57,103 nt of DNA from Bacillota bacterium (GTDB lineage: Bacteria > Planctomycetota > Phycisphaerae > Tepidisphaerales > Tepidisphaeraceae), in assembly GCA_050261455.1 (NCBI GenBank), contig JBLNDH010000042.1, forward strand, positions 1 through 57,103. Direction: 5' to 3'. Shown here piece after piece: positions 3,098-44,604 of the stretch; the first letter of the stretch is position 1, and the number at the start of each line of letters is the position of its first letter. Under the pieces are notes generated by a model that was given only the letters and a program-made list of their open reading frames with translations, ran no database searches and was not told the origin of the DNA. The translations under genes and the position numbers were made by a program.

Positions 3098-3263
3098 GCG
3101 ATGGTGCTAATAGACCAGCTCACATCATATCAAGGATGGCTGCAATTACTTCGGAAGGCATCCCGAGAAAGTCATCGCCTCCTTTGGCAAGCATATGAAG
3201 TGAGCGTTTGATCGCGAGCGAAAGGGTTTCACGACGGACAAGCGAATGCTCGCCCCTGAGAGT

Positions 3264-11827: not shown

Positions 11828-13795
11828 ATGAAAAAGTACATCACAATCAGCCTGCTGGCGGTGGGTATGGCGCTGGCCAACATCAGCTTTGGGCAGGAGG
11901 CGATACCCGCTGTCGCCAAGACCTTCATTGACTATTTCCTGCCGATGCCCATCACGGACTCCCTCTCCAAGTCTGCTTGGGGCGCGCCGGAAGTTGGGCC
12001 GCGCGATGTCAAGAACGGCTTGGAGGATGTCACCGTCAAGCAGTGGTATTACTGGGACGGCCAGATCATCAAGTCGCCGGACGGCAAGTATCACCTGTTT
12101 GCCAGTCGCTGGGACCAAGCCAGGGGCCACAATGGCTGGTTTGGTTCCAAGGCCGTTCATGCCGTCAGCGACAAGCTCATCGGACCGTACGTGGACAAGG
12201 GCCTGTGCTGGCCGGACAGCCAGGCCGGCAAAGGGCACAACGTCACGGCGCTGGTATTGCCCGACGGTCGCTATGCCGTGGTCATTAGCGAGACGCGCCC
12301 GGGGACGGTCTTTGTCTCCCAATCCCCCGACGGCCCTTGGGAAGAGTTGGGGACAATCAAAGGGGAAGGGTTGCAGGCCTCCAACATCAGCATCATGGTC
12401 CGCCCCGATGGGGACTTCATGATCGTGCCACGTTCGGGACACGTGTTCCTCAGCAAGGCGACCGATGGCGTTCTCGGGCCGTACAAAGATTTTGGGCCTG
12501 CTTTCCCCAGGGGCATCCCCAATCTCGAAGACCCCTGCGTCTTCTATTCCGGCGGCCTCTATCACATCATCGTCAATTCCTGGAGCACGCGCAAGGCTTA
12601 CCACCTGACCTCCATAGACGGCAAGAGCAACTGGGTCAACTGCGGACTGGCTTATGATCCAACCAAAGATTTCATCCGCTACACCGATGGCACCGTTAAC
12701 CATTGGCACAAGCTGGAGCGTCCTGGCGTGGTTATTGAAAACGGTCATGTGGTCGCGATGACGCTGGCGGTGCTGGACATTCCAAAGGAGAAGCAGAAGG
12801 GCAACGACGCCCACGGCAGCAAGGTCATCGTGGTTCCGTTTGACGGTGTTGCCTTCGATCGCGACATGGAGAAAGTCGCCAATGCGCCTCAAGCTGATGT
12901 GAAGGCCGGCAAGCTGGCGCCGCGGCCACTCTTCCGCGATCCACCCTTCGATGCGCCGACGGACCCCGTGCTGTGTTTCAATGCCGAGGCGAACAAGTGG
13001 TACATGTACTACACCGCCCGACGGGCGGCGGCGACCGATGCGCCGGGCGTGAGCTGGGTGCATGGCTCGAACATCGGCATGGCCGAATCGTCCGACGGCG
13101 GCGCGACCTGGACCTACAAAGGCACGGCTGAGATCAGTTATGGGAAGGATGAGCACCCCAGGGACTACACCTATTGGGCTCCGGAGGTCATCTGGGACAA
13201 TGGCGTCTACCACATGTTCCTGAGTTACGTACCGGGGATCTTCAACGACTGGAACCACCCGCGGCAGATCGTGCACCTCACGAGCAAGGATGGTGTGAAA
13301 TGGGAAACCGTCGGCCCGATTGACCTGAAATCCGACCGGGTGATCGACGCGTGCGTCATGCAGGTCCCCGCCGGCGGCTGGCGGATGTGGTACAAGGATG
13401 AACGGGCCCAGAAGTCACTCTGCTATGCTGATAGCGCCGACCTGATGAAGTGGGAGCCCAAGGGCAACGCGGTCACGGAATACAACGGCGAAGGGCCCAA
13501 GGCATTCCATTGGAAGGGCAAGTATTGGCTCGTCGCCGATTGCTGGAGGAACGGCCAGCGCGTCTGGAGTTCGGATGATTGCCTGAACTGGAAGATGCAG
13601 GACAAGACGCTTCTGGGCGGCCATGGCGACGTTGTCGTCAGTGGCGACCGCGCCTGGTGGTTCTACTTCGGTCCCGGCCGCCGAACCGCCATCGACGTCG
13701 TCGAACTCACCGTGGTCGACGGCAGACTCATCGCTGGCGAACCGAACCAGCCGACCTACATCGATCTCAAACCCGAACGAGAACTGGAGAAGTAA
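11828..13795 (+). CDS. Secreted two-domain beta-propeller glycoside hydrolase (GH43/GH117-like)
   Basis: 655-aa ORF. Signal MKKYITISLLAVGMALANISFG. First half WYYWDGQIIKSPDGKYHLFASRWD. Second half FNAEANKWYMYYTARR...MAESSDGGATWTYKG...WAPEVIWDNGVYHMFLSYVPG. Confidence 0.85.
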   Translation: MKKYITISLLAVGMALANISFGQEAIPAVAKTFIDYFLPMPITDSLSKSAWGAPEVGPRDVKNGLEDVTVKQWYYWDGQIIKSPDGKYHLFASRWDQARGHNGWFGSKAVHAVSDKLIGPYVDKGLCWPDSQAGKGHNVTALVLPDGRYAVVISETRPGTVFVSQSPDGPWEELGTIKGEGLQASNISIMVRPDGDFMIVPRSGHVFLSKATDGVLGPYKDFGPAFPRGIPNLEDPCVFYSGGLYHIIVNSWSTRKAYHLTSIDGKSNWVNCGLAYDPTKDFIRYTDGTVNHWHKLERPGVVIENGHVVAMTLAVLDIPKEKQKGNDAHGSKVIVVPFDGVAFDRDMEKVANAPQADVKAGKLAPRPLFRDPPFDAPTDPVLCFNAEANKWYMYYTARRAAATDAPGVSWVHGSNIGMAESSDGGATWTYKGTAEISYGKDEHPRDYTYWAPEVIWDNGVYHMFLSYVPGIFNDWNHPRQIVHLTSKDGVKWETVGPIDLKSDRVIDACVMQVPAGGWRMWYKDERAQKSLCYADSADLMKWEPKGNAVTEYNGEGPKAFHWKGKYWLVADCWRNGQRVWSSDDCLNWKMQDKTLLGGHGDVVVSGDRAWWFYFGPGRRTAIDVVELTVVDGRLIAGEPNQPTYIDLKPERELEK

Positions 13796-13841
13796 CGCCG
13801 GTCCTTTCACGAGCTGTGCTTTGCGGCGGAGGCATCACAAC

Positions 13842-14264
13842 ATGATAACGCGCAAGACCTTCCTCGGCATTGCCACGGCGGTAGTCTGTTTTGCGGTGGC
13901 TGCGGCGCAGGCCCAGCCCGCCACTCAGCCCGCGCGCATACAAAAGCTGCGCGACCTCCGCATGCGAGATGTCTGCATTCTGGCCGATCAGGCATCGAAG
14001 ACATACTACATGATCGGGCCGGCGCGCCGTGGGGTGCGTGCCTACACCAGCAAGGACCTGGCGACATGGGAAGGCCCGCGGGTGATCTACATCGCCCCCA
14101 ACGATGTTTGGGGCGACATTCCCGTCGTCGGCATCTGGGCTCCCGAGCTGCACGACTATGAGGGCAAGTATTACCTGTTCCTGACCTTTGACACCCGCAA
14201 TGAGTTCCCCGAGCAGTGGCGCGACTGGCTGCCGCGTGTGACCCGCGGCTCGCAGGTTCTGGTG
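13842..14264 (+). pseudogene. GH43-family hydrolase, N-terminal 141 codons only. This marks the left edge of the island.
   Basis: MITRKTFLGIATAVVCFAVAAAQA signal, then MRDVCILADQASKTYYMIG...WAPELHDYEGKYYLFLTF...TRGSQVLV. After 14264 the open frame becomes unrelated sequence that contains a repeat. Confidence 0.7.
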
Positions 14265-26060: not shown

Positions 26061-26086
26061 CAAAAAACCCCTCGTAAAGAGAGGTT
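26061..26086 (-). terminator. Hairpin plus T-run on the minus strand, 49 nt beyond the tRNA-like 3' end
   Basis: Minus-strand aacctctc-tttac-gaggggtt (7/8 bp) followed by ttttttg. Confidence 0.4.
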
Positions 26087-26134
26087 ACAGGAAAGTACTT
26101 TTTCTACACTAAGCCCTTATGGGATAAGGCTTAA

Positions 26135-26160
26135 TGCATCTTGTAGGACTCGAACCTACA
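26135..26160 (-). repeat. att-like direct repeat A: tRNA T-arm + acceptor 3' strand + discriminator (minus-strand sense)
   Basis: tgcaTcttgtaggactcgaacctaca. Its reverse complement is GTAGG-TTCGAGT-CCTAC-AAGATGC-A. It matches 44545-44570 at 25 of 26 positions. No 5' acceptor strand or D-arm lies at the proper distance. Confidence 0.55.
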
Positions 26161-26406
26161 GAGAATCCTGCGATTTCCTCGGAAAAACAGAAGATCCGCT
26201 TGGCCGAGGGTAGCAAATCGGGTAGCAACCTCTCTGATTCGACCGATCTAGACCATGGTTTGCAGGACATGGCGAAGGTATGGGCCAACCTCCCCGAACA
26301 AACCCGGTCCGAAATCCTCGCTTTGATCCAGGCTGCCAAACCCAAGCAAGATCGATAGCCAATCCCCCTCGCCCATCGGCGGCATCCCGGCAACCTGGCG
26401 GAGCCG

Positions 26407-26882
26407 TTGCCCATTTCCGACGACCTCAGTCTCATCCCCCTCTCTTCAACGCCGCCGCGAGGCGGCTAGACGACTTCCCGGCCGGTTGCCCCATCCGAGT
26501 CATTGCCCATCTGGACCGTTGCCCCTTTGCCCCGTTGCCTGACACACAGGGGGATCAAATCCACCCTGATCGACATCCCCAGGGAGAGCCTTCGCCCCCT
26601 TGCCCAGTGGAACAGAAAAGGCATGGGCGGAGCCACCCGCCGTTGCCCAGTTGCCCGATCTACCGGGGGATCAATTTGCCTTAATCTGAGTGGTGATAGG
26701 CGGTAGCCTTTGCCCGGCAGACTGGAAAAACCCATTGACCAGCAATCCGAAAACCCCTCTTTTGCTCGCCCCCGCCATCCTGGCATCGACAGGGCGAGAG
26801 AACTTGGCTCTTTGCGGCCGTTGCCCCATTATCCGCTTATCGGGAGGATTGACACGCCAGCGGCATGGCCGCGACCTTGCCC
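26407..26882 (+). repeat. Array of 13 same-strand TTGCC(C/T) hexamers in non-coding DNA (iteron / arm-site-like)
   Basis: TTGCCC at 26407, 26486, 26503, 26519, 26527, 26600, 26643, 26651, 26710, 26821 and 26877. TTGCCT at 26535 and 26686. The motif is usually preceded by G/C-(G/T)T. GGGGGATCAA occurs at 26549 and 26665. Confidence 0.85.
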
Positions 26883-27171
26883 CGACTGATAGCCGGGCAG
26901 TACCTACGCCCCCACCTCGCCGACAAAACCCCATGGCTGCAACGCACGGCCCCGATTCAGATGGCGGATGATCAGAAGCCTACGCCAAGGGAGGACGACG
27001 TTGCAGGCGTACAGCCAAGCCCGTAGGACAGCAAACCGGTTACTATGCCCATGATCCCCCTGCTGTACGCGCCCCTGTTGGATGCGAGGGCGAGAGTTCT
27101 TTTTCCTGGCAGCGAAGCAAACAACCCCGGCCATGGCTTATCTGGCCTGATCTTCATGCTGCAACGGGACC

Positions 27172-27209
27172 AAAGAAAAACCCCCGCCTCATGCTGGATG
27201 AGACGGGGG
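27172..27209 (-). terminator. Rho-independent terminator for the 27466-27242 ORF
   Basis: Minus-strand cccccgtctcat-ccagc-atgaggcggggg (11/12 bp) followed by tttttcttt. It lies 33 nt after the ORF stop. Confidence 0.6.
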
Positions 27210-27241
27210 CGTCACGATGGCAACACTTGATGCCCGATTGG

Positions 27242-27466
27242 CTAGGCGATGCCACACGCCAACAGGGCAAGGCGGGCAGCTATTTCCTTACGAACCATGC
27301 TGGGACGGGCAAATTGCTCGCGGACGTAGTCGGGGGCGGCCGGCAGCATTTCATTCTGAATCTGAAGAATGAGGTCGGCCGCCCTCATTAATAACCACAT
27401 CTCCGCCAGGTGTTCCCGGCTGGTCTGCGGGATGGAGTTCTGCACGGGGGTCTGTGTCGTTTGCAT
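27242..27466 (-). CDS. Small hypothetical protein (74 aa)
   Basis: MQTTQTPVQNSIPQTSREHLAEMWLLMRAADLILQIQNEMLPAAPDYVREQFARPSMVRKEIAARLALLACGIA. Support comes from the strong downstream terminator and the AT-rich upstream region. I recognise no family. Confidence 0.45.
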   Translation of the reverse strand: MQTTQTPVQNSIPQTSREHLAEMWLLMRAADLILQIQNEMLPAAPDYVREQFARPSMVRKEIAARLALLACGIA

Positions 27467-28043
27467 GGTTCGCTTTCCTTATGCTTGGACTCGCAAGGTT
27501 CGCCGCTCTGTCCCATGGCCTAGCAATGGTGCAGAGTATGCCTAATGAATCCGAGCGTGGCAAACAAACACATGTTTATACTATAGTCACAATACACGTA
27601 GCATCATCGTTTCACTATACTGCTGGGCATTCGCATGCTCGGCAGTCATCGGGTATGATGTAGCATCCGACGGCAGGATTGCCCCACCCCTCCCCCGGTA
27701 CCACCCTTGAGCTTGGGTCCCATCGGGCAGGATTCCCGTATCTATCATGTCCCGACTATCATGAGATCAACTTTGACAACCTTGACAGCGACTGCTCACC
27801 AGAGTCCGCTGCCATCCATGGCCCCGCTTACGATTCAGCCGAGTCGTAATCAATTCCAGATCGGTACGCAGCACCGAAGCGCAAAACGATATGGCCAATA
27901 TTACATTGCTGCCCCACAATCCCCTGTCGCGAAAACTCGGTTTATTTTACAAGCCGGCCGGAATTTCCTCTAGATAGGGGAGGCTGACGAGCCCCGCGCG
28001 TGTTGCGGGTCGCTACGCAACAGTGTTCTCAACCAGGAGTTTC

Positions 28044-29318
28044 ATGCAACGTCCGCAGAAGCCGTATCCGGAGTTTCCACTGACCGCTTGCACAAACGGA
28101 CAGTGGCGAAAGATCGTCAAGGGCCAGCCCTACTACTTCGGTTCTTGGCGGACCGATCCCAAAGGCGAAAACGCCCTGAGGCTGTGGCTTGCGCGCAAGG
28201 AGGCCATTCTCGCCGGGCTCTACCGCGTGGACACTACCCCGAGCAACACCGCCAATGACCTGACGGTGGGCGAGCTCGTGAACAAATACCTGGCGATCAG
28301 AGGCCGCGACGTGGAGGCGGGCCGTATCGCGCCCGGCACCTACGGCGATTACATGGCCAATCTCAAAGACTTCGCCGACTTTGTTGGCCCCCGCGTGAAA
28401 GTCGCCATCCTCAAGCCGGGGCACTTCTCGGCCTATCGAGCCACCCTCGAATTGCGCAAGCTGGGGGCTCACGCCACCAGGCGGGTGATCGTCAACGTCA
28501 AGACCGCCTTCAAGTACGCCGTGGACGATGGGTGGATCACTTCGATCTGCTTCGGACGCGCATTCGTGGCCCCGCAAACCGATTCCGAAGCCGTGGCCCT
28601 GTCCTGCCTGCGGGCCGGTAAGGAGAACCGCACCGAGCGGATACTGGTCCGGCGCGAGGTCCGGCGGCTTCTTCGGGCCACGACCTTCAAGCCCAAGTGG
28701 CGGGCCATCGTGCTGCTGATGCTCAATGCGGCCATGAACCCCGCGGAAATCGCCCGCCTGAAATGGGCCGAGATCAACTTCAAGAGCGGCCGGCTCCGGC
28801 GTCGGCGGTGGAAGACGGGCATCCTGCAGGAAGCCTATCTCTGGAAGATCACGCGGAAGGCCCTGGAAGCCCTTCCCCGCGACGATGCGGAATGGGTCTT
28901 CGTTCGCCCCAACGGCCAACTGCTCGTGAATACAGAGCCCGTCAAGGGCAAGAAGGGTTCCGGGGAAGAGGCGATCGTGCATATTCGCCGCTCCAACCGC
29001 ATTTCCCGGCCCTTCCGCGATCTGGCGGAGGCCGCCGGCATCGAACGCATCACGCCCTACACCCTGCGTCGCACCGCTCGCACCGTCGCTGCTCATTGTC
29101 CTGATGACAACGCGGCCAAACGAATGATGGGCCAGCGATTGACGGGCCGGGACAATACCTACATCAAGGGCAGGTTCCCCTTGGCCCGACTGAAGGCGAT
29201 CGCCCGGACCCTCCACGATCGTCTGGTTGCGGCAAAGCCACAAGCCCCGAAGGACAAAGGTAGGTCCGGCAACGACGAGAATACCCCAGAGCAAGATAAC
29301 GGCCATTCGGGGCAATAA
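28044..29318 (+). CDS. Tyrosine-recombinase-fold integrase (integrase 2), full length, with apparently non-canonical active-site residues
   Basis: AGGAG RBS 4 nt before ATG 28044. SAM-like domain LTVGELVNKYLAIRGRDVEAGRIAPGTYGDYMANLKDFADFVG. Catalytic-domain pattern ...LNAAMNPAEIARLKWAEINF...RRRRWKTG...ITPYTLRRTARTVAA...MGQRLTGRDNTYIKG. Confidence 0.85.
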   Translation: MQRPQKPYPEFPLTACTNGQWRKIVKGQPYYFGSWRTDPKGENALRLWLARKEAILAGLYRVDTTPSNTANDLTVGELVNKYLAIRGRDVEAGRIAPGTYGDYMANLKDFADFVGPRVKVAILKPGHFSAYRATLELRKLGAHATRRVIVNVKTAFKYAVDDGWITSICFGRAFVAPQTDSEAVALSCLRAGKENRTERILVRREVRRLLRATTFKPKWRAIVLLMLNAAMNPAEIARLKWAEINFKSGRLRRRRWKTGILQEAYLWKITRKALEALPRDDAEWVFVRPNGQLLVNTEPVKGKKGSGEEAIVHIRRSNRISRPFRDLAEAAGIERITPYTLRRTARTVAAHCPDDNAAKRMMGQRLTGRDNTYIKGRFPLARLKAIARTLHDRLVAAKPQAPKDKGRSGNDENTPEQDNGHSGQ

Positions 29319-29337
29319 CCGGCATGCGATCCTCCGT

Positions 29338-30015
29338 TCAGCACCACGATACTTGGAGACAATGTGGCATCGGGTCGAATTGGCCCTCCTCTTGGTCGAT
29401 AGGCTGCTCATGGAGCAACTCAACATCCCGGTTCTCCAGCCATTTCTTGAGATAGAACGTTCTGAATACCTTCTTGATGAAAGCCGTGAAGCACATGGCC
29501 TCATTCACGTGAAGCCGTGCCTCCTCGAACTGCATATGGAGATGAACTAGCGGGTGGTCCTCGCGTTCTTGTTGCGGATCGAAGTCAAACCGCATGGGGG
29601 ATCGCAGACTAAGCTCACATATGTCTCTCGCGGCTCGTGGCGATTCGATGCACATAGCCAGACCATCACACAAGTCGTTCAAGGTCTCAGCCGGTGACGG
29701 AAACTTCACCGGGCATGGCCAGTACCACAGGGTATGCTCGACGATCGAGTTCCCCTCACAGACGTAGGATGCCCTAACAAGTGAATTATCAAACAGAATG
29801 CAGGTAAACTCGCCGCCCTTGACCCATCCCAGATACTGCTCAAGCGACCCGAAAGGATGCTGATGACCGCTTCCAGCCTCGCTGCTTCTCCACGAAATGC
29901 GGGTTCGGCCGTTAGCTGTGACTTCATGCGGCGTGTTGTAAAACCGCACAAGCTTGATCGCGTATAGGCTCTCGCACGTACTGGCAATGTGCTCGGCTAC
30001 CTGCCTAGCGTTCAT
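29338..30015 (-). CDS. DUF2290-like protein (family assignment from memory)
   Basis: ATG 30015 lies inside the 3' end of the upstream helicase ORF, with an 11-nt overlap. 225 aa. Cys/His-rich core ...WYWPCPVKFPSP...MRFDFDPQQEREDHPLVHLHMQFEEARLHV. Confidence 0.7.
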   Translation of the reverse strand: MNARQVAEHIASTCESLYAIKLVRFYNTPHEVTANGRTRISWRSSEAGSGHQHPFGSLEQYLGWVKGGEFTCILFDNSLVRASYVCEGNSIVEHTLWYWPCPVKFPSPAETLNDLCDGLAMCIESPRAARDICELSLRSPMRFDFDPQQEREDHPLVHLHMQFEEARLHVNEAMCFTAFIKKVFRTFYLKKWLENRDVELLHEQPIDQEEGQFDPMPHCLQVSWC

Positions 30016-31140
30016 CGCGTTCACCACCCTCCTTCAGCGCTCGCAGCAGTTCGCGAAGTTGTGGCATCGCATCGGGCGACAGCACACCTTGGCGGACAAG
30101 TTCGATGACTTCCTCCAGGTTCCGAGCAGCCTTCCGGATCTGTCCCTTTTCCTGTGCGGTACGATCACGGTTGATGCGACGCACCTTCTCCAACTCGGGC
30201 GATGTCGGGATACGGAATCGCAGCTTGAAGTCGCGGCTGGTGACCTGGTCGATTTCCTTCTGGAGCGTCGCCATGCCCTGGCCAATGCCGCAAATTCGCA
30301 CCCAGCAGCGGGAGCGGGTAATCCCTGTGAAAAGCACATTTCGCAAGCGGATCATCTCGTGTCCGGATGCACAGTGATCTGCATTGGCGATGTAGACCAT
30401 GGGTGCTTCGTTGCCCTTCGCCCGGAAGATCCCCGATACCGTGACAGCTCCTGTTTCCATGAAGGAATCTCGGTCGTTCGTGACGCCCGCCAAGTTCGAG
30501 GAGATACCATAGCTGTCGAGATGTCTCCGAAGCGCGTAGTATTCATCCTTCGCGGAGATCGCATTGGGCAGGATGATCAGAATGTCATCCGGATCAAGCT
30601 CATCCTCTGTGATGTTCCTTTTCACTTGGTCGGCAATCCAGACATTCTGCTCGTCACGAGACTGGAATGCCTTCACTGCGACGGCGTCTGCAGGGTCCAG
30701 TAGCTCCGTAAAGATCGTGGGATAAGATCGCGGAGCACGGGAAAGGGTTACAGTTTCCCCTTCGGTAAGGCTTCCGTGCTCTACCTGATATCCGATCTCC
30801 TCCCACATGCTTGGATCGTCGAAATGCTGCACGATGTGTGATTCTCGGAACAGGCCGAATCCTAGAGCATGGGCAAGAGTCAAGGCCCACGGCGTGTTGC
30901 GATAGCACACGGGTAGGATGATGTCGCGCTGCGGAGCCTCAGCGACGTTGGCCAGGCTAATCTCTCGGCCGAACAGATCGGGCGCGGAAGCCATGCTGGC
31001 ATCAGACAGGTTCTGCAACTCATCATACGCCCAAACAATCCGTTTCGGCTGCTTGGTCATTGCGTCCACGATCTGGAAGAAGGTCGGTGGCAGGTCCTGG
31101 GCCTCGTCGATGAGAATGGCATCATACAGGTCGAGTTGAG
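30005..31140 (-). pseudogene. Superfamily-1 (UvrD/COG3972-like) helicase lacking its N-terminal Walker A half
   Basis: The frame is open upstream of the track start and reads LDLYDAILIDEAQDLPPTFFQIVDAMTKQPKRIVWAYDELQNL (motif II DEAQD). Later motifs are VCYRNTPWAL, GIFRAKGNEAPMVYI and NVLFTGITRSRCWVRICG. No GxGKT is present. Upstream sequence switches to a transposase-like frame. Confidence 0.75.
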
Positions 31141-31341
31141 TGTCTGCTCCACGCTCGAACGCACCACCCGGTCGAGGTGGCCACGGGCCTTCTCGGCATC
31201 CACCGAAAATGCCGCCTTCAAAGCCTCCGTCTCGGTTCCTTCCGACGCCGAATCTGCTACCTTGTCCATCTGGCTCTCCTTCTTTCGGGTAAGGGTTGTC
31301 TTCACACCAACACCTTCCAGGCGGGAGAGCCGACTTTTCAA
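31140..31341 (-). pseudogene. Possible IS256/mutator-type transposase N-terminal scrap
   Basis: MDKVADSASEGTETEALKAAFSVDAEKARGHLDRVVRSSVEQTLNS resembles the ...LRELVRxxVEETLNALLDAE... N-terminus of IS256-family transposases. Only ~25 residues are similar. Confidence 0.25.
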
Positions 31342-31408
31342 TTGTGCGTAACTTTCAAGACGTTACCCCGCTCCTTCGGTACACTCAATCAGGAAACGCA
31401 CAAGCCCG

Positions 31409-31674
31409 CTACCAAAAGACGCAGCCCACAAGTGCGACCGCTTTCAGCAGGTCCCGGTGAATCCGGATCGCACTCTGGCTCAAGATGGACCCCACCATGT
31501 ACGCCACGCTGTGCTTGGGCGTGGAGGATGAAGCCCTACCATTGGAATGCTCAGGCACATGTACACCTGATCCACCAGGCAGTGGCCTCGCAGAACTTCC
31601 ACCTGCTTCTCCCGACACAGGTCCCGCAGGATTGGCCCGATTCGCCCCCATAGAGGATGATTGCAGCCTTTCAC
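31409..31674 (-). mobile_element. tnpA: IS200/IS605-family TnpA (Y1 transposase) remnant, frameshifted and 5'-truncated
   Basis: Frame 1 reads PLWGRIGPILRDLCREKQVEVLRGHCLVDQVYMCLSIP. Frame 2 reads PKHSVAYMVGSILSQSAIRIHRDLLKAVALVGCVFW. Together these parallel ...LRKLCEYKGVEIIEGHxMxDHIHLLVSIPPKYSVSQFMGYLKGKSSLMIF...NRHFW. Confidence 0.65.
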
Positions 31675-33035
31675 GGGATCACTTCTGTCTCACAACCCTC
31701 CTGAGTCACGGCTCCAGATTGTACGCGGGAGGCATCGCCGGAAGACTGGACACTATCCCGCATCACCTTAAGTGCAAGCATGAGATTCGCCTGGGTCCAC
31801 AGCAGCGGCGTGGCGTCACTTGGCACACGCCGGCCATCTTCGATGTAATACAACTCCGGACACCGCCATTCGGGGAACCCAGAATCGGGGCTGGTCAGTT
31901 GACCGAGCGAACGGTTCAGATACTTCGTCTGAAGGCGGAAAAACTCACCGTTCCGCGTAGCCTGATATCGCAAGCCATAAATAGCCGAGATGATCGGATC
32001 GAATATGCACCACTGCGCCTCATTGCCTCGCTGCGCCATGGTGTCCCGCGCAACCATGTTCTCACTGTAGTCGATCGTGCGTTTCTCCGCCGTTACCTTC
32101 TTTTTGTAGTCCGGTGCCCAGTACGAATCGCCAACGTACCGGCGGACGCCGTGATCGCCCTGGAGGTTCTCAAGGACATCCTGCAGTACGCGGTCAGCAA
32201 TCTTGCCGGTGATGACTTCGAGAGGATAGATGAGGAACAGCAGCGCAGCATCATACCGACGCCTTTGGGGCGACTTGGCCTGAATACACTCGGCAGGCAA
32301 GATCCTTCTTAAGGACGCCCTACCTTTCGCGATCAACTCGTCAAGCAAATGTCTTGGCCTTCTGTGCTTCGCGTTCAACGGAGATGAAGTCCACAGTCGC
32401 CTCAGTTCAAGCAGTCCGGCCACAACCGCTCCGATGCTCGATGCGGATATCTTCCTGATCTCCTCCCAATGTCCGCTGTCTTCATCCTTCCAGAAGGCGA
32501 CGGACTTGAGATACTTGGCCAGAAGCCACAGCGTATCCAAGTCAGTCTGTTCAGGCTTGATTAATCCTTTGCAGGCAAGCTTCGAATAGAACCAGATAAA
32601 ATAGCCCAACGCGTCATTCTGCGCATGCGGCCATTTCTCATCGATATCGCCAAGGGTCAACCCGTCGAACCGAATATGGGGACGACACATGACGTTCTTG
32701 GGGCTAACACCTCTTCTGCTGATCATCGTTCGGCACCGACTGCACTGTTTGCGAAAGTGGTCCATAAGGGCACATGCAGTCCGGGCGGCAACGTCGGCCT
32801 CGCCGAGGACGTAATGGGCATGGGCGATGTGCACGTTATCGCGTACCCAAACGCTGGCGTAGCCAGTGTAGGCCGTCTCGCCAGTGACCGAGGCTGCAGG
32901 AAACAGTCCGTTGTTGAGAGTGGGGAAACTGAAAACGCCCTTGTCAGACAACTCACGTCGGATCGCTCGGACTTTCTCAGACGTGTAATGGAACCGCAGC
33001 AAATCGAGCAGTGCTTCATTCTGAACAACAAGCAT
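31671..33035 (-). CDS. GH15-fold (glucoamylase / phosphorylase-kinase-regulatory-like) protein, no signal peptide
   Basis: Start MLVVQNEALLDLL (ATG 33035). YASVWVRDNVHIAHA, WPHAQNDALGYFIW, EDSGHWEEIRKISASSIGAVVAGL, GVRRYVGDSYW, EAQWCIFDP and TPLLWTQANLMLAL. Confidence 0.8.
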   Translation of the reverse strand: MLVVQNEALLDLLRFHYTSEKVRAIRRELSDKGVFSFPTLNNGLFPAASVTGETAYTGYASVWVRDNVHIAHAHYVLGEADVAARTACALMDHFRKQCSRCRTMISRRGVSPKNVMCRPHIRFDGLTLGDIDEKWPHAQNDALGYFIWFYSKLACKGLIKPEQTDLDTLWLLAKYLKSVAFWKDEDSGHWEEIRKISASSIGAVVAGLLELRRLWTSSPLNAKHRRPRHLLDELIAKGRASLRRILPAECIQAKSPQRRRYDAALLFLIYPLEVITGKIADRVLQDVLENLQGDHGVRRYVGDSYWAPDYKKKVTAEKRTIDYSENMVARDTMAQRGNEAQWCIFDPIISAIYGLRYQATRNGEFFRLQTKYLNRSLGQLTSPDSGFPEWRCPELYYIEDGRRVPSDATPLLWTQANLMLALKVMRDSVQSSGDASRVQSGAVTQEGCETEVIP

Positions 33036-33251
33036 TCGAGTGACCTTTCTGGTCCCCGTTCCAGTACAAAGGCGACACCATAGCATCACTGCGGACCGAA
33101 TCGCCCCCGGTGAACCAGGGTCCGACTGTCTGGCACAGTATCAAAGATCCAGGGATCCTTGCAAGGTCCTTCGAGAGGCATCCCCTGGAGCCACACGACC
33201 GCGGTCACGATCTCCCCCCCCGCATCCGTCATATGCCCCTCTACCAACCTT

Positions 33252-35252
33252 CTATTTGCTCCACGGGAATGCTCGCCAAATCCTGACTAAGAGTTGCCAT
33301 GGAGATCGCGCCGCAATCCCCGCCTTCGATACAATAGCGTATGCAGCTATGCCACCCAACAGCCCAATTGCGAAAGTGCAACCAAGCTTCGCAACCGAAC
33401 ACCGTTTCATATCGTCTATAAAGGGCCAAAAGATTTGAGGGACAGTGAGCGCAGCCACAAAGATCGCCAACCAATCTACAGCGGTTTGGATATCTTCTTC
33501 GCGGAGAGCCCGAAGGTGGGCGTGGATCTCATCCAGTTGTCTCCGCATCTGCTTTACCTGTCCCTGCAGATTGACACCCTTGCTGATCATGAGGAAGAGA
33601 TCATGTAATGCCATTCTCTGCCAGGAGGATACCGATTCCAGTCTCTCCATTATCATGCTACTAGCCTTAAACAGGCGATCTCGATCCTGGCGATTACTAA
33701 TCGCCAACCTCTCGCCCCTGTTCTTGTTCTTATAGTGCCGGTCAATAGTCGCTTTGGCTCGCTCTCGAACCGCCCGGCAGTAGGCCAATTGGATCTCGCA
33801 GTCGATGCACTCAAACAGCCTAGCCAGCGGACCGTGTTCAAGCCCCGCAATAATTGAAGAGACACCAAAGTACTCGGGACACATTCCCCAATAATCCGTC
33901 TCCCAGTAGCGATTCACAGCGTCGATGTAGCTCTCCGGCAAACCCTCTCCACTAGGCTGTGCGTTGCCGGATCGATTCCTTGCACACCCACGCTCTTTAC
34001 CTTTGGTGAAATTTGCCATCAAGACACCACGGCCAAGGGCTACGACTGAGAAGAAGTCGCGAGTGCCCCACTTGCTTTCGAGCCCTCTCTTGGCACATTC
34101 CTCCGGAACAAATTTGTAACCTTCATCCCCTGTGAGCATGCCATAGATGTTTTTGGGATGAGCCACGATGTACTGCTCGGCATCCATTGGCTCGCCGCTT
34201 GCGGTCTCTCCCGCTGTTCCTTCAATTGGGGCCTTCAACTCCACACACCACATGGGATTCGGCTTTCGGTACTTACGCTTGTCCCCCACCTCACCTCCTT
34301 CCAGCGTTTCCGCTTCAGCACCCGAGACTCGTGTTCCTGCTGCATTCGCGGGGAGTCCCATGGCAGGTTGATTGTCAGGGCGACCGACACCTTCCGAATC
34401 GGCAGCCCTTGATGCAATACCTGCGATCGATGGAACTCCTTGTCGGCTATTTCGCATTTTCGTGTTAGGCTCCTCAGCATCCCACACTGGAGCCCAGTCT
34501 ATTTCATAGTCTTTTCTAAACTGCTCTATGCAAGCGTCAGCAACCTCCATGAGCGAGCAGGTGTAGAGGCCAAGGTCTGTACAAGTCCACCTGATTTTGA
34601 CTTGACCTTCAGCGATCTTCTCGCCAGTGTTCTTACATCTGCAGGGTTGTACCCCTTCCCCGCTCGCCGCATTTGGTCGTGAGATCAGGAATCTGTTCGT
34701 GCACCGCTTTGTGAATCCCTCGCTCTCTGCACGTTCATGCGCACTATGAATGAGGGCCACGAAGTCGTGCGCTCGCACGGAATCCAGATGGATGTTCACT
34801 GTCAAATACGCCACACCAGAGCCTACATGAAGATGCACCAAGACAATCACCTTGGCGGTGTCCTGCCCATCGCGGAGATGCACTTTGATCGTATTCGGCC
34901 TGAAAAGGTACCTCTGTATGCTGTCCCCGTCGAGCCTGTCGGAAATGGTTCTCAATGATTCGAATTGCCATGCGAGTCGGGACACCGTATTGGGCCTAGG
35001 AGCCGCTTTATCATGGCCCACAGTTGCACCGTTCAGGTACCAGAAATGAGCGGTGTTCTTCCCCAACAGGCCTTTTGGGTTAACGTCTAACAGTTGAGCG
35101 AATGGATAAATGAAGCAGATGGATGCGCCCGACTCCGCGTCGGTCTCGATGAAATCTTCTTCTACGACCTTCGCCTGTGCGACAGACTCTAGGATGTGGC
35201 CTACGCTTTGGGCCACTGCAGCGCCGCCTTGTGAACTCTGATCTGAATTCAT
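33252..35252 (-). CDS. 666-aa hypothetical protein with a CorA-like C-terminal coiled coil and two-TM hairpin
   Basis: AAGGAGG RBS 6 nt before ATG 35252. The C-terminus reads ...QVKQMRRQLDEIHAHLRALREEDIQTAVDWLAIFVAALTVPQIFWPFIDDM...LGCTFAIGLLGGIAAYAIV. There is a low-complexity linker mid-protein. No GMN motif. Confidence 0.8.
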   Translation of the reverse strand: MNSDQSSQGGAAVAQSVGHILESVAQAKVVEEDFIETDAESGASICFIYPFAQLLDVNPKGLLGKNTAHFWYLNGATVGHDKAAPRPNTVSRLAWQFESLRTISDRLDGDSIQRYLFRPNTIKVHLRDGQDTAKVIVLVHLHVGSGVAYLTVNIHLDSVRAHDFVALIHSAHERAESEGFTKRCTNRFLISRPNAASGEGVQPCRCKNTGEKIAEGQVKIRWTCTDLGLYTCSLMEVADACIEQFRKDYEIDWAPVWDAEEPNTKMRNSRQGVPSIAGIASRAADSEGVGRPDNQPAMGLPANAAGTRVSGAEAETLEGGEVGDKRKYRKPNPMWCVELKAPIEGTAGETASGEPMDAEQYIVAHPKNIYGMLTGDEGYKFVPEECAKRGLESKWGTRDFFSVVALGRGVLMANFTKGKERGCARNRSGNAQPSGEGLPESYIDAVNRYWETDYWGMCPEYFGVSSIIAGLEHGPLARLFECIDCEIQLAYCRAVRERAKATIDRHYKNKNRGERLAISNRQDRDRLFKASSMIMERLESVSSWQRMALHDLFLMISKGVNLQGQVKQMRRQLDEIHAHLRALREEDIQTAVDWLAIFVAALTVPQIFWPFIDDMKRCSVAKLGCTFAIGLLGGIAAYAIVSKAGIAARSPWQLLVRIWRAFPWSK

Positions 35253-35830
35253 AAACGTCCTCCTTCTCTTGAAATGCAGATTCCGAAGGCGAGGCCCCTG
35301 CTACCGATCTCTCCACACAGGACCACCACAGGCCATGACATGACCCCACCTTACTTGGTTGTCGATTTTACTCTTTTTGCTTGGCTACCGCTAACAACTC
35401 TTTCAAGGGAGGCACAACGTAGCCGTAACCGGCGGCACCATTTCGCTCCGGTCCGGGACCTGGGAGCACCGTTACTTCCTTATTTGCAGTCCATTGCCGC
35501 CGAGAACATAGTTGCCGAACTTCGTCCATTCCGAGGGGCTGTCCGACCTAACAACGGCCATCGGTGGGCTGTTGGCAAGCAACAGGCGAACTTGAACGCC
35601 AAGGTGATAGTGATCGGGCAGGAGTGGGGAGGCGTGACAGCCCCTTGCGGGCCGCTTACGTTTTGACCGTTCCGTCAGATGTCGAAGGTGTCGGCAAAGA
35701 TGTGAAGGATAGTGGGTTTAGCGCAACAGGGAAGGCAGCTCGCGCTCAGCATGAATTCCGCTCAATAGGTGTCGCCGGCTACACTCAATGCACCAGTGGC
35801 CCTATTCGCCCAAGTCGCGAAGGACTTGCT

Positions 35831-36391
35831 TCATTCGTCCGTGTGAACAAGCCGAGTGTACCCGGGTGGCGGCCAAGCCGGCCCACTGCTTTGCGGCGTG
35901 GTTGGGTGATGTCTACGCTGTCGCCTTTCTTGCGGGGGTGGCGGTTGGACCGGCTGCACCGTCAGCAATGCGGCCGGATCGATGCGATAGATCTTCTTGC
36001 GAACCGAGCCGTATTCCAGGGCTGGCAGCTTGCCTCTCTCGATCAGCCTGCGGATGGTCCACCGAGACACACAGGCTCGCTCGGCCGCCTGCCTCTCTGT
36101 CAGCAACTCGCCCCGGCGTTCTGATGCTCCCTCACGTCGCACAACAGGATTCGTGAGGGTCAGTCCGTGAATCTCAATCTGGCCGATCTTCTGGCGCACG
36201 ACCTTGGCCGCAAATTCGTGACCATCGGGCACACGGGCGACGAGTTGGACACGGAACCACTCGGCATCCTCCTTATCGCTCGTGGCGATGTGTTCGCCTC
36301 CATGGGGCAGTTCGCTTAACTCGATCGGCTGGGTTTCCCAGGATCGATCGTCAGATGAATGTATGAGTAAAAGTATCTTCATGGGGAACAT
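35831..36391 (-). CDS. Excisionase/MerR-type HTH_17 DNA-binding protein with an unknown N-terminal domain
   Basis: LTERQAAERACVSRWTIRRLIERGKLPALEYGSVRKKIYRIDPAAL is a typical HTH_17/Xis motif. The tail is Pro-rich. Start is ATG 36391 or 36382 (the track gives TTG 36403). Confidence 0.7.
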   Translation of the reverse strand: MFPMKILLLIHSSDDRSWETQPIELSELPHGGEHIATSDKEDAEWFRVQLVARVPDGHEFAAKVVRQKIGQIEIHGLTLTNPVVRREGASERRGELLTERQAAERACVSRWTIRRLIERGKLPALEYGSVRKKIYRIDPAALLTVQPVQPPPPQERRQRRHHPTTPQSSGPAWPPPGYTRLVHTDE

Positions 36392-36573
36392 ATTATGCCC
36401 CAATGTTCGGCGGCTGAACTCCCTCTAAACCGCACACCAGTATTCGGACGTCCGCATGATGCCGCAACAGTCAAGTTACTCAGCAATGTGCCGATGGCAA
36501 GTCAGGGTCAGCGAATGCCTACCCAACGCCTTCGCTTAGATCCGACTCGCGACGGCAGCCAAAGGAGGCCAAC

Positions 36574-37584
36574 TTGCGGAAGCATCGGAGACTTCTGGTT
36601 ATGGCGATCGGGATAGCGTTGCTGATGACTCTCTTCCCGCCATGGCGTGTGCGTGAACGCAGGTACCGGGACGATGCATTCGGGCCTGAATACGCAGGCG
36701 GCTATTCGTTCATCCTGGCTCCGCCCTACGCAACAGCGGAGTTTGGGTCGTGGTGCGAGAAGTACACGACGATGGTTGCCCGCTTGGACTGTGAACAATT
36801 GCTGGCTCAATACTTCGCTGTGGCACTGGGAGCGGGATTGGTGGCTGGGTTAGCAAGCCTCTTCAGGAATCAGGAGACAGCTAATCAGCTTCAACATGGT
36901 GGGGATGGCACAGGCTGGTGGGAACAGAACTGTCCGACATTCACCTCACCATTTCGACGGCGTAGGAAACAGGCTCGGAGGGCGGTTGGTTCCCTTGCAC
37001 GAGGAGAGCGGCAGACGGCGAGTTCTGCCCAACCCATGGTCTACGAAGTGGCAAAGGCACCCGAGCAGGTTGAGCCGGGGCTGAAGCATGAGGGAAAGTG
37101 CCAGCCTCCGCACTCCACGGGGTTCAGGGTATCCCTTGTGTCATTGCTCCTGGCCATATCCATCGCGGCATTCTCCGCCCTACCTGATCTGTTTGAGCCT
37201 TCTGTCTGGCGGCGTATCTCGCCATCGGGTGTAGCCGGAGCTTTTACGGGAAACCTGATAGTCTATCTCACCATCCCAGGATACGTCAGCTACGTGGTCT
37301 GGAAGCTGCGACATCGATCCATGGACTCGGCTACGGTTTCATTCTGTGCCCTTGCCGTTGGGTTATTCGTGTTGCATGGAGAGCTTGACCGAGCGAGGAT
37401 GACTACCGTTGGCGTCGTGTCTACTACTCCCCCGGCAATGCAGCCCCGCATCATCTGGGACGATGAGCCAGCTGCTGTTGTTGCCCCAAAGACTGCTACC
37501 CCGATGAAGCCCGATAGTCGAAGAGGCATTCGCCTGGATCAACTGCTGTTGCAGGAGAATCAAAAAGGGCGTTCGCCTGGATGA
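36574..37584 (+). CDS. Multi-pass membrane protein, unknown function
   Basis: AGGAGG RBS 5 nt before TTG 36574. Hydrophobic segments LLVMAIGIALLMTLF, YFAVALGAGLVAGLASLF, LVSLLLAISIAAFSALP, GVAGAFTGNLIVYLTIPGYVSYVVW and FCALAVGLFVLH. The C-terminus carries GIRLDQLL. Confidence 0.6.
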   Translation: MRKHRRLLVMAIGIALLMTLFPPWRVRERRYRDDAFGPEYAGGYSFILAPPYATAEFGSWCEKYTTMVARLDCEQLLAQYFAVALGAGLVAGLASLFRNQETANQLQHGGDGTGWWEQNCPTFTSPFRRRRKQARRAVGSLARGERQTASSAQPMVYEVAKAPEQVEPGLKHEGKCQPPHSTGFRVSLVSLLLAISIAAFSALPDLFEPSVWRRISPSGVAGAFTGNLIVYLTIPGYVSYVVWKLRHRSMDSATVSFCALAVGLFVLHGELDRARMTTVGVVSTTPPAMQPRIIWDDEPAAVVAPKTATPMKPDSRRGIRLDQLLLQENQKGRSPG

Positions 37585-37726
37585 TCCCCTTGAACGGTCT
37601 GCCGGGCCACGGTTGAGCTTGCGGGCGATATCGCCGTCTGCCGGCCACTTTGTTATAGGATGCTTGCGAAGCATTTGACACACGCTGCCGCATATTGGAA
37701 CCTTGTTGCAACTAAAAGGAGGTCGT

Positions 37727-38031
37727 ATGAGACAACTGCTGTCGGCTGTCGCTGTGACCGTGGCGATTTTTGTGCGGGCACCGTATCTGCGGACGTGTAC
37801 GTGAGGGGGTATTACCGGCAGAATGGCACTTATGTTCAGCCGTACTACCGGACGGGCCCGGACCAGAACTCCTACAACAATTACAGCACCTACCCCAACA
37901 TCAATCCCTACACTGGGCAGCAGGGCACGCGGTACTATCCGCCCCGCTGGTCCTCTGACCGCGAATCCCGGCCCTCGTTTTCGCAGCCGCAATTGGTCTA
38001 TCCGCGGTATCCCATCTATCGCCGCTACTAG
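37727..38031 (+). pseudogene. Small secreted Tyr/Pro/Asn-rich protein. The signal peptide and mature part are in different frames.
   Basis: AAGGAGG RBS, then ATG 37727 giving MRQLLSAVAVTVAIFV... with a stop 26 codons in. The +1 frame gives ...CAGTVSADVYVRGYYRQNGTYVQPYYRTGPDQNSYNNYSTYPNINPYTGQQGTRYYP, a recurrent small-protein family pattern. The shift lies near the T5/G3 runs at ~37770-37780. Confidence 0.6.
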
Positions 38032-38455
38032 GTGGTCGGACACGCGCCCCTGGCTCGGTGGCCCCCTGCCAGGGGCGTTGCCCCAACTGCTCAACCAACT
38101 CCAACCGCCCCCGGTCTTAAGGCAGGCTCGCCGTGGTGATGGATGCAGTGCCTTGCCCGGAAGCTTCGCGAAAGGGCTGTCTGGGATGTCGTGCAGCTCG
38201 CAGGCTACCAAACTACCTTTTACCCTCTCCGACGCGTCTGCGCTCGAGCTAGGGGCCTCCCTGACGGGGCGTCGGGGCAATGCCGGGTCGATCACTCGCC
38301 TTACGGCCAATGCAAACGATTGCGTGATTGTCGGGGTTGTGAAGGACCCCCTCTTTCAGGCAGACCTCGGGCAACTATTGACCCGTGCAACCCTCCCGCC
38401 TCTCCGCACCTAGCGTCAAAGACGCCAAGACCCCTATTATCCCCAGTCAGTGAAT

Positions 38456-38680
38456 ACCTTTGGATCTAAATTATTATTACTACTACACTTATTCAAAGAT
38501 AATGAGTGAGTATCTTTGATGAGTACCTTTGGGTAATACGGGCATCTTTGGAGTATACGAAGATGCTCATCAAAGCTACTCATGTGCTATCTTTGGGGGA
38601 CCCTTGTAAATACTAGACTTACCTTCAAAGGTGCTCATGGGTGTACGGGTAATAGGAAGACGGACATCTTTGGTGAGCAT
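38456..38680. repeat. AT-rich cluster of at least 9 CTTTG/CAAAG-centred 13-mers in both orientations (operator/iteron-like)
   Basis: agtgagtatctttg, gatgagtacctttg, gcatctttgg, atgctcatcaaag, gctatctttgg, caaaggtgctcat and ctttggtgagcat. The consensus is roughly ATGAG(C/T)A(C/T)CTTTG and its complement. Confidence 0.7.
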
Positions 38681-38963
38681 CTTCGGTCCAGCGCTTCAAC
38701 TGATCGCTGAACGCGTCTCCTCGCCAGTGGCCACCAGATCCATAAGAGGCGAGGACCATGGCTATCGGGTGGCAGCCCCAGCATGCCGCTACATGACACG
38801 GGTCGCACGATCACCATATCCGCCAAGTCCGCAGCCGATCACCTTCCATCACTTCACCACAGAACCACGCTTCAAGACTTCCGCAACATTCTGAGTGTCC
38901 TAGCCTGCATTCGCAGGTCATTCTTTACATGAGTAAACATTGCTGAATTGCAACATCGGAGGA

Positions 38964-39290
38964 TTAAAAACTACGAGATTCTCGAAGATGAACTAATTTG
39001 GGTGCCATAATTAAGATAGAGGAACATTGTGTTTCTAACGCCCGGCCCCGTGCATCGCAGGACGGTAGGCAAGGAGATAACGACTTGAAAACTCACAGAT
39101 TTCTGAAGATGGGTTGATTCATCGTTCATAGTTTAGATGGACACACAGTGTTTCTAACGCCCCCTACCCCCGGCATGGCCGGGCAGCGGGCAAAGAGGAA
39201 GAGGATGGTAATTTAAAAACTAGCAGATTTCCGAAGGTGCGATGAATCGTGTGCCATACTTCGTATGGACAGGCATAGGTATTCGACTCT
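38964..39290 (+). repeat. Three degenerate tandem repeats, period 121-127 bp
   Basis: Units start at 38964 (ttaaaaactacgagattctcgaagatg), 39085 (ttgaaaactcacagatttctgaagatg) and 39212 (tttaaaaactagcagatttccgaaggtg). Shared internal blocks are gccataNttNNgatNga and gtgtttctaacgccc (units 1 and 2). Confidence 0.75.
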
Positions 39291-39475
39291 GGTAGGGTTC
39301 ACTGGTTGTCGCCTGTTGGCCCTGCCCTGAGGCTTTCTGCGTCCCGGCCTATGGCTGTCGGACGCATCGCGGAGAAAGGAGGACTCGATGGACTGGTAGC
39401 CTCAAAGAATGATGCAGAGATTATGGCGTAGGATTGCGACGTTGTCAAACAGAATTTCGAAATCGGAGGAGAGAA

Positions 39476-39715
39476 ATGGATCAGGCAAGTTTGGCTACGA
39501 CGGTGGCGGACCTCTTGAGCGATGCGGAGGCAGCGGCACGGGCGAAGGTTTCAGTAACGTCGATCAGGAACTGGATCAAGCGAGGGAAGTTGTCGGCAGT
39601 AAAACTGGGGTGGGCGATGCGGATCTCACGCAGCGAACTCGACGCTTTCTTGGCGAAGCGTGGCGGCAAAGTGTCCTCGGTGGCCACGGAGGGTACCGCC
39701 GATGAACAACGATAG
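39476..39715 (+). CDS. HTH_17/excisionase-family DNA-binding protein
   Basis: GGAGGAG RBS, then ATG 39476. LLSDAEAAARAKVSVTSIRNWIKRGKLSAVKLGWAMRISRSELDAFL. Its stop overlaps the next gene's start. Confidence 0.75.
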   Translation: MDQASLATTVADLLSDAEAAARAKVSVTSIRNWIKRGKLSAVKLGWAMRISRSELDAFLAKRGGKVSSVATEGTADEQR

Positions 39716-41927: not shown

Positions 41928-41974
41928 CCGGACGAGCGGAGGAGTATCGATTTCACCCTGTTGAGAGGAGGAGA

Positions 41975-43441: not shown

Positions 43442-43470
43442 TTCGGGAATCGTTTCGAGGACAAAGGAGG

Positions 43471-44510: not shown

Positions 44511-44540
44511 CAAAAACCCCCGATCGTCATTGACCGGGGG
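44511..44540 (-). terminator. Rho-independent terminator 4 nt after the tRNA-like 3' end (minus strand)
   Basis: Minus-strand cccccg-gtcaatgacgat-cggggg followed by tttttg. Confidence 0.55.
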
Positions 44541-44544
44541 TTAG

Positions 44545-44592: not shown

Positions 44593-44604
44593 GTCAGCAA
44601 ACAC

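Follow-up and report, generated by a model that had tools for sequence, protein, structure and literature searches.

Described origins built on short repeats

Arrays of 5–8-bp iterons are described for the Staphylococcus aureus pathogenicity islands (SaPI) and phage-inducible chromosomal islands (PICI) and are annotated in P4. They are compared here with an array of thirteen TTGCC(C/T) hexamers at 26407–26882 of contig JBLNDH010000042.1 (Planctomycetota). The window is the whole stretch of DNA analysed, a complete metagenomic contig of 57,103 nt that looks like Planctomycetota by the names of its homologues. The array lies inside an integrative island of 18.4 kb, 26161–44537, which is bounded by 33-nt attachment (att)-like repeats and flanked by ordinary metabolic genes. 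The array would belong to a known class of element, not to a new class, and its wider biology is unsurprising. The original prediction, which knew of no described motif of this form, was wrong in kind on this point.

SaPI and PICI origins contain 6–12 penta- or hexanucleotide iterons, bound by the C-terminal winged helix of Rep (PMC9371898, PMC6092414). The origin is immediately 3′ of rep. Its centre is AT-rich and flanked by iterons, with at least two iterons per side in opposite directions.

In the P4 record NC_001609, compared by annotation and positions only, 8-bp type-1 repeats are present in ori and in the cis replication region (crr). The ori is upstream of the excisionase-like ORF88, which heads the alpha operon. 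The crr, on the 3′ side of the primase gene, is 194 bp away from the attP core; it is made up of two 120-bp repeats, and each of these carries five octamers. Type-1 repeats are reportedly bound by the alpha primase-helicase. The alpha helicase is of the superfamily 3 (SF3) type.

Sites of recombination directionality factors (RDFs) are 3–7 contiguous direct repeats, one helix turn (10–11 bp) apart (PMC7498355). Arrays for 186 Apl and P2 Cox have 5–7 contiguous sites spaced by 10–11 bp (PMC7498355, PMC3936717). For RDFs encoded by first genes, the recognition sequences at att resemble those of a distant promoter region (PMC7498355).

Description of the TTGCC(C/T) array

The array is genuine: it is non-coding, confined to one strand and not random. 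TTGCCC occurs eleven times on the + strand (26407, 26486, 26503, 26519, 26527, 26600, 26643, 26651, 26710, 26821, 26877) and TTGCCT twice (26535, 26676). Twelve of these positions agree with the original prediction; the thirteenth had been given as 26686, a misprint for 26676. The − strand of the span 26407–26882 carries no copy, as had been stated, and the nearest inverted hexamers (27265, 27307) are both within an open reading frame (ORF) of 74 aa. Copy-to-copy spacings are 79, 17, 16, 8, 8, 65, 43, 8, 25, 34, 111 and 56, and the recurrence of 8, 8, 8, 16 and 17 noticed earlier is found among them. Copies are distributed over all three phases, likewise as first described. The extended consensus is approximately (C)CG-TTGCCC-(C/A). 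The prefix (C/G)(G/T), earlier called usual, precedes eight of the thirteen copies and is lacking in the remaining five.

The background is 0.00078 hexamers per nt per strand, equal to a lambda of 0.37 for the array span, against 13 observed. Poisson P(≥13) is 2.8e-16 (3e-11 after Bonferroni correction), and the rest of the contig has at most 3 hexamers per 476 nt on either strand; counting per strand thus bears out the density first noticed. When the contig is simulated 200 times with an order-3 Markov model, the top cluster of any hexamer has 4–7 copies, versus 11 exact TTGCCC observed. In 5000 simulations of local composition the maximum is 7. One-mismatch variants within the array are at background (8 on +, 9 on −), so that copies are either perfect or absent. 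The lack of an excess of degenerate copies argues against a decaying microsatellite.

No codon-phase GC signal is present in the array core, in line with the non-coding character assigned to it earlier. RNA folding of either strand is no better than that of shuffled sequences (z +1.6 and +0.9), and a structured RNA is rejected on these scores. Being non-coding and without RNA folding, the array points to a site that acts at the DNA level. A Chi-like or other polar genomic signal is also rejected: TTGCCC shows neither strand skew nor enrichment in 38 kb of host flanks. Identity with DnaA boxes is rejected, the hexamer flanks having no TCCACA-like extension.

Substructure of the array

Ten of the thirteen copies are in a dense core of 230 bp, 26486–26715, in which two sets, A and B, are distinguished (Table 1). 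Set A includes three contiguous 8-mers, CGTTGCCC CTTTGCCC CGTTGCCT. Weakly similar units of ~120 bp start at 26515 (set A) and 26639 (set B). Each contains two to three tandem 8-mers, a GGGGGATCAA box, a distal hexamer and an A-tract. The 35-nt cores of the units are 80% identical, and the remainder of each unit is only weakly similar. GCCGTTGCCC is found at 26403, 26515, 26639 and 26817, with spacings of 112, 124 and 178, and the higher-order register of the array is 112–124 bp. The GGGGGATCAA box is the second element of the original prediction. It occurs twice, as claimed, and a perfect inverted copy of 11 nt exists besides. The 100 bp between sets A and B have 55–68% GC, with a local minimum of 45–47% at 26660–26680.

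Position in the island and in the excised circle

The array starts 247 nt inside the left island end and extends 247–720 nt from the att core. Between the core and the first dense set of hexamers are 326 nt. Across the att core, the integrase 1 ORF and the ORF 26134–26358 share one reading frame, so that the reconstructed junction gives a single ORF ending ...KVWANLPEQTRSEILALIQAAKPKQDR. L058 and L061, two islands whose primase-helicases are related to this one, have the same layout; their tails are ...AVVDAWGTLPEAIRAAITAMV... and ...AVVKAWPTLPERTRREI..., respectively. The junction ORFs compared are 43791–44570+26161–26358 (window), 11954–13519+7430–7669 (L058) and 12616–13887+2791–3177 (L061). 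In all three islands the junction ORF ends with the conserved tail motif W..LPE..R..I. With the attP core inside the integrase ORF, integration would swap or remove the C-terminus of the integrase. An integrase-internal attP of this kind resembles Mx8 intP/intX and SSV1.

In the circular form the array begins 49 nt past the stop codon of the integrase. Behind the replication operon no other non-coding DNA then precedes it, and it follows the primase-helicase stop by ~2.9 kb. The distance of 11 kb from the primase, as first reported, applies to the integrated form and not to the circle.

Proposed reading as iterons of a replication initiator

The array is tentatively read as iteron-type double-stranded DNA binding sites for a replication initiator encoded by the island, a possibility that stays somewhat short of an even chance. 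Of three options named originally (origin iterons, arm-type or excisionase sites, a centromere-like site) it is the best supported, by the arrays of relatives, a predicted winged helix and a second TTGCCC cluster. The likeliest binder would be the primase-helicase, acting through its C-terminal winged helix; the DUF3987 protein is a less likely one. The array may also act in replication.

The last ~95 residues of the primase-helicase (~661–755) form a conserved module. An alignment-based AlphaFold model has a predicted local distance difference test (pLDDT) score above 90 over a core of three helices and a beta-hairpin (H-H-H plus beta-hairpin). The best Foldseek matches of this module in PDB are winged-helix DNA-binding domains, with weak E-values of 0.01–0.2, among them ArgR/AhrC, Fur/Zur, PadR and a Rep–DNA complex. 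Searched by sequence against Pfam and PDB, the C-terminal domain gives nothing meaningful. The C-terminus is accordingly described as a winged-helix DNA-binding domain by prediction from the modelled fold. The AAA_25 domain resembles RSF1010 RepA (PDB 1g8y, E 4e-4), and PriCT_2 and Toprim are N-terminal to it.

Apart from the array, the second, small TTGCCC cluster is the sole place in the contig where 300 bp hold at least 4 TTGCCC. It is non-coding (P ~4e-4 per given window). Its copies are in both orientations, with gaps of 75–120 bp, 1.1–1.4 kb from the HTH_17a start. Next to it, ahead of the replication operon, is the stretch of the contig with the least GC, 38441–38500 (22–30%). Together with its boxes this stretch (38441–38690) is a candidate unwinding element and origin of classical appearance, judged by sequence.

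Excision would yield an 18.4-kb circle and set the array directly behind the operon of HTH_17, primase-helicase, DUF3987, 107-aa ORF and integrase. Many initiator molecules could then load side by side on the hexamers, down to 8 bp apart. The loaded array might cooperate with the small cluster and the AT-rich stretch at 38.0–38.7 kb, as P4 crr does with ori. Alternatively, the array would titrate the initiator as a copy-control locus. In terms of P4, the att-near array may correspond to crr, and the small cluster with the AT-rich stretch to ori. Decidedly improbable is an excision-gated two-part origin, in which the circle restores the integrase ORF and only then pairs the array with 38.0–38.7 kb. 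By this proposal, replication would be licensed by the topology of the circle and not by a repressor alone.

P4 and apparently also the island have short repeats (6–8 bp) at two places, the large array being near att (194 bp in P4, 247 bp here). The smaller repeat set is in non-coding DNA ahead of the primase operon, whose first gene is excisionase-like. A higher-order register of ~120 bp may be a further parallel, and the initiator of P4 and the putative one of the island are multidomain primase-helicases. Unlike here, where 13 of 13 copies point one way, P4 repeats are in both orientations. In P4, crr is between the primase gene and attP, whereas the present array is beyond attP and the attP-spanning integrase ORF. 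The P4 helicase is SF3, in contrast to a RepA-like AAA_25 with PriCT_2 and Toprim here, and the AT-rich region of the island has a second type of box, CATCTTTGG.

With SaPI and PICI, where the iterons are bound by a self-loading (Pri)Rep helicase, the island shares short iteron-like repeats in two sets (13 hexamers here) and a helicase with a C-terminal winged helix (here predicted). An integrase and an excisionase/AlpA-like protein are also common to them. In contrast to the SaPI/PICI origin immediately 3′ of rep, DUF3987 intervenes here, and the distance is ~2.9 kb even in the circle. Iterons flank an AT-rich centre in SaPI/PICI, whereas 55–68% GC is found here between the sets; and against at least two oppositely directed iterons per side there, none is on the − strand here.

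If the hexamers are iterons, they would be a testable cis-element of replication for an integrative island on a Planctomycetota-like contig, from a phylum in which we know of no characterised replicon. RepA-like primase-helicases (SF4) that carry a winged helix at the C-terminus would then use the short-iteron logic of the SF3 initiators of P4 and SaPI/PICI. A candidate minimal replicon for vectors would consist of 26.4–26.9 kb, 38.0–39.4 kb and the gene of the primase-helicase.

Repeats beside related primase-helicases

The closest homologues have at most 43% identity to the primase-helicase and at most 50% to the DUF3987 protein; no close relative of the island is present in the collections. 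The viral comparison set consists of 67 viral loci encoding relatives of the primase-helicase. Six independent lineages (L104/110, L105, L106, L087/91/108, L097, L083/89), encoding relatives of the primase-helicase or of the DUF3987 module, carry runs of short repeats in non-coding DNA, with 6–11 copies of a 5–6-bp core, mainly on the same strand. Some inverted copies are present in L083/89, L104/110, L105, L106 and L097. Runs start 1, 7, 7, 31, 958 or 2323 nt past the stop codon. Spacings within sets are mostly 8–13 bp, up to 19; sets are 37–55 bp apart, and 163 bp apart in one lineage. The candidate viral origins are PICI-like, having two iteron sets around a palindromic or AT-rich centre, and four lineages start at most 31 nt past the stop. 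We know of no literature description of viral hexamer arrays beside primase-helicase relatives.

In L061, an island less closely related, the HTH_17–primase pair is preceded by GCGCGAAC octamers, five of them direct and two inverted. L058 has four 25-bp repeats and GGCATCTT(T)GG boxes directly past its primase-helicase. Taken with the six viral lineages, these repeats indicate that short, tightly packed, gene-adjacent repeats recur in this primase-helicase family. Copies of ATCTTTGG in L056 are in coding-looking sequence and hence are not counted as support. The viral arrays and the present one belong with the same protein family (26–39% identity), are non-coding and mainly on one strand, and have two gapped sets. 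Unlike the array of the island, the viral ones start 1–2323 nt past the gene and usually have a few inverted copies and a centre that is palindromic or AT-rich; in motif they bear no relation to TTGCCC.

The exact pattern TTGCCCNNTTGCCC, 6–20 nt, GGGGGATCAA has no match in metagenome or viral contigs. BLASTN of 26359–27240 gives no match in phage and plasmid collections. A looser pattern, TTGCCCNNTTGCCCNNTTGCC (three hexamer units at 8-bp spacing), finds 48 viral stretches, which are discarded as unrelated simple tandem repeats. One of them is in a 61-kb viral contig, L035, where CCGTTG(C/T)C, the array-unit octamer, is repeated ~24 times in unbroken tandem in non-coding DNA at 6100–6290.

Several observations weigh against the iteron reading. 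All 13 copies are in one orientation, and the stretch between the sets is not AT-rich, unlike SaPI/PICI origins and P4 crr; with single orientation and such a centre, three defining features of a PICI origin fail. Before excision, 12.8 kb separate the array from the primase gene. The cluster of four copies becomes borderline after a contig-wide scan (family-wise ~0.07). A more classical origin candidate exists at 38441–38690, AT-rich and with CATCTTTGG boxes. These boxes, not TTGCCC, are common to the window and to L058, the closest island by primase-helicase, which carries GGCATCTTGGCATCTTTGG and CCAAAGATGCCAAG directly past that gene. The primase-helicase may therefore read the (C/T)A(T/C)CTTTGG box, and another protein TTGCCC. 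The TTGCCC array is absent from L058, L056 and L061 (closest by primase-helicase), from L147 and L149 (by DUF3987) and from L064–L079 and L152–L156 (by a 21-mer described below). Since no close relative carries the array, binding to it is something we infer. The island looks partly decayed, with integrase 1 and the UvrD-like helicase truncated, so that the array may no longer function.

Alternative readings

The main rival, itself unlikely, takes the array as an operator for an RDF (excisionase or regulator). An HTH_17 protein would polymerise on the repeats, bend the arm and direct excision, and would also act at a few sites upstream of its own operon, like P2 Cox, 186 Apl and P4 Vis. Direct, strand-pure repeats at 247–720 nt from the att core are as expected for such an operator. 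HTH_17a heads its operon, TTGCCC is at two places (13 copies near att, 4 upstream of the operon), and HTH17b is 56% identical to the int-adjacent HTH_17 of int2-type phages. The spacing of one helix turn fails, however: adjacent spacings are 8, 8, 8, 16 and 17, followed by irregular gaps of up to 111. Whereas the arrays of 186 Apl and P2 Cox are contiguous, 13 sites with an 8-bp minimum are here irregularly spaced over 476 bp, the first dense set at 326 nt from the core. The upstream cluster, with copies in both orientations, gaps of 75–120 bp and 1.1–1.4 kb to the HTH_17a start, also speaks against an operator, and int2-type phages have no TTGCCC array by int-xis. The excisionase half of the arm-type/Xis option of the original prediction fails this helix-turn rule.

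Partition and pac sites typically have short repeats arrayed on a single strand. A centromere-like or pac-like site, which would serve to segregate or package the excised circle through a small protein of the island or a helper-phage protein (e.g. small terminase), is nevertheless quite unlikely. The strand purity of the array fits it, the island is satellite-like and without structural genes, and several island ORFs have no recognisable family. Yet no ParA-, ParB-, ParR- or terminase-like protein is present among the island ORFs scanned (Pfam, PHROGs, PADLOC), which leaves the centromere option of the original prediction without partition genes; with several small ORFs unassigned, this negative is weak. 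The adjacent 74-aa protein matches no Pfam or PHROGs family, and no related element pairs such a gene with such an array.

As arm-type binding sites for integrase 2 the hexamers are very unlikely. Integrase 2 has a long N-terminal region, its gene is 1.1 kb from the array, and two more same-strand TTGCCC are on the other arm (44310, 44335). Against this stands a different repeat, the 21-mer GGTAGCARATCGGGTAGCAAC, which flanks the att core symmetrically, at −142 and +49, and has two GGTAGCA units. The exact 21-mer GGTAGCA(A/G)ATCGGGTAGCAAC is also present in 21 other, unrelated contigs, 16 from metagenomes and 5 from metagenome-assembled genomes (MAGs); the latter are of Stellaceae, other Alphaproteobacteria and Phycisphaerae. 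In these contigs (L064–L079, L152–L156) it is always by tRNA genes (Ser, Thr, Gly, Gln) or integrase 3′ ends. An inverted GCTACC unit often accompanies it, and none of these loci has a TTGCCC array. By sequence the 21-mer is the better candidate for an arm-type site, with a cross-phylum distribution, and its place around the core weakens the arm-type option originally offered for TTGCCC. The TTGCCC hexamers are distributed 13 versus 2 between the arms and reach +720. To our knowledge, a spread of 13 sites over 476 bp far exceeds attP arms. Phage relatives of integrase 2 show CGATACT repeats by int, but no TTGCCC. No shared core of at least 12 nt suggests a nested int2 element; an element of this kind bounded by repeats is rejected, shared words being at chance level.

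That the array has no sequence-specific function is likewise given very little weight: for a decaying 8-bp microsatellite (CGTTGCCC)n, suggested by pure (CCGTTGYC)n tandem arrays in phage contigs such as L035 and by spacings mostly near multiples of 8, many degenerate copies are expected next to the 13 perfect ones, whereas one-mismatch variants are at background; and for a C-rich Rho-dependent terminator after the operon, suggested by a C-rich + strand at 26280–26560 (36–45% C, 17–27% G) that folds worse than 98 of 100 shuffles and by the lack of a predicted intrinsic terminator on the + strand, no exact hexamer is needed and the C>G bias is near, not beyond, the 99th percentile of the contig.

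Coordinates of features

Table 1. Features of the array, the island and related viral loci, in window positions except for the viral loci.
Feature	Position	Strand	Remarks
Hexamer array, 13 TTGCC(C/T)	26407–26882	+	Single orientation; from motif counts and simulations
Set A, 5 copies	26486–26540	+	Spacings 17, 16, 8, 8
Set B, 4 copies	26643–26715	+	Spacings 8, 25, 34
GGGGGATCAA box, copy 1	26549–26558	+	9 nt past set A
GGGGGATCAA box, copy 2	26665–26674	+	8 nt past tandem pair of set B
Inverted box TGATCCCCCTG	27052–27062	−	11-nt perfect complement of 26547–26557
Second, small TTGCCC cluster	38078–38374		38078+, 38153+, 38275−, 38369−
AT-rich stretch with (C/T)A(T/C)CTTTGG boxes	38441–38690		~7 direct and ~4 inverted boxes
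Three direct repeats, ~120 bp	38964–39271	+	Spacings 121, 128; just upstream of HTH_17 gene
Terminator-like hairpin by left att core	26066–26086	−	
Left att core, tRNA 3′ end-like (T-arm) fragment	26128–26160	−	91% identical to 44538–44570
Tail ORF, in frame with integrase 1 across att core	26134–26358	+	Ends ...KVWANLPEQTRSEILALIQAA...
21-mer GGTAGCAAATCGGGTAGCAAC, candidate arm-type integrase site, P′ side	26209–26229	+	
74-aa ORF (27242–27466), convergent, and intrinsic terminator (27180–27210)	27180–27466	−	Right bound of non-coding stretch
Integrase 2, full length	28023–29318	+	
Second HTH_17 gene (HTH17b)	35831–36403	−	
HTH_17 (HTH_17a), excisionase/AlpA-like	39434–39715	+	First operon gene
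Primase-helicase	39660–41927	+	PriCT_2, Toprim, RepA-like AAA_25, predicted C-terminal winged helix (~678–737)
DUF3987 (YfjI-like) helicase-like protein	41975–43441	+	Starts 48 nt past primase-helicase stop
Integrase 1, catalytic domain only	43791–44627	+	
21-mer GGTAGCAGATCGGGTAGCAAC, candidate arm-type integrase site, P side	44396–44416	+	Followed by inverted GGTAGCA, 44417
Right att core	44538–44570	−	Adjoining tRNA degenerate; Rfam tRNA model 15.5 bits, below threshold
Viral candidate origin, L104	8858–8993		
Viral candidate origin, L105	10857–10945		
Viral candidate origin, L083	9327–9570		
Viral candidate origin, L106	5926–6030		
Viral candidate origin, L097	12960–13300		
Viral candidate origin, L087	9336–9420		

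Other genes and repeats of the island

No intact tRNA is found; tRNA and Rfam scans of the window give nothing at threshold. The island is satellite-like, with integrase, AlpA-like HTH protein and primase-helicase. The order of the replication operon is HTH_17, primase-helicase, DUF3987, 107-aa ORF, integrase 1. Between the second HTH_17 gene and this operon are 1.4 kb of non-coding DNA. The ~120-bp direct repeats upstream of the HTH_17 gene share TT(A/G)AAAACT..AGATT(T)C..GAAG(A/G)TG, and the first two also have GTGTTTCTAACGCCC.

Integrase 2 is the sole full-length integrase of the island, its long N-terminal region preceding the catalytic domain. Homologues with 50–64% identity are, in the three looked up, on phage-like contigs of up to ~49 kb that have no TTGCCC array. 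No close relatives of integrase 2 are found in reference genomes. Integrase 2 and HTH17b are homologous to an adjacent int–HTH_17 pair in phage-like contigs L001–L007; in the island ~6.5 kb of cargo is between them.

Integrase 1 is without ~205 N-terminal residues of its 55%-identical relative of 431 aa (L155, Phycisphaerae MAG). In place of the missing N-terminus is the 107-aa ORF, 43471–43794, with three internal I.L..LL...G repeats. The region of this ORF has a 90-bp tandem duplication, at 43570 and 43660.

At 29338–31069, the products of two genes, one of DUF2290 and one a UvrD-like helicase, match a PADLOC candidate defence pair, PDLC02998 + PDLC03002. The helicase ORF spans only positions 353–694 of the 707 of the model, so that the defence system is probably truncated.

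TTGCCC also occurs at 51658, 51796 and 51934 (−), with an exact spacing of 138 nt, in the region 51244–51934 of a 1335-aa ORF, 49508–53515. These copies are a coding tandem-domain repeat, unrelated to the array.

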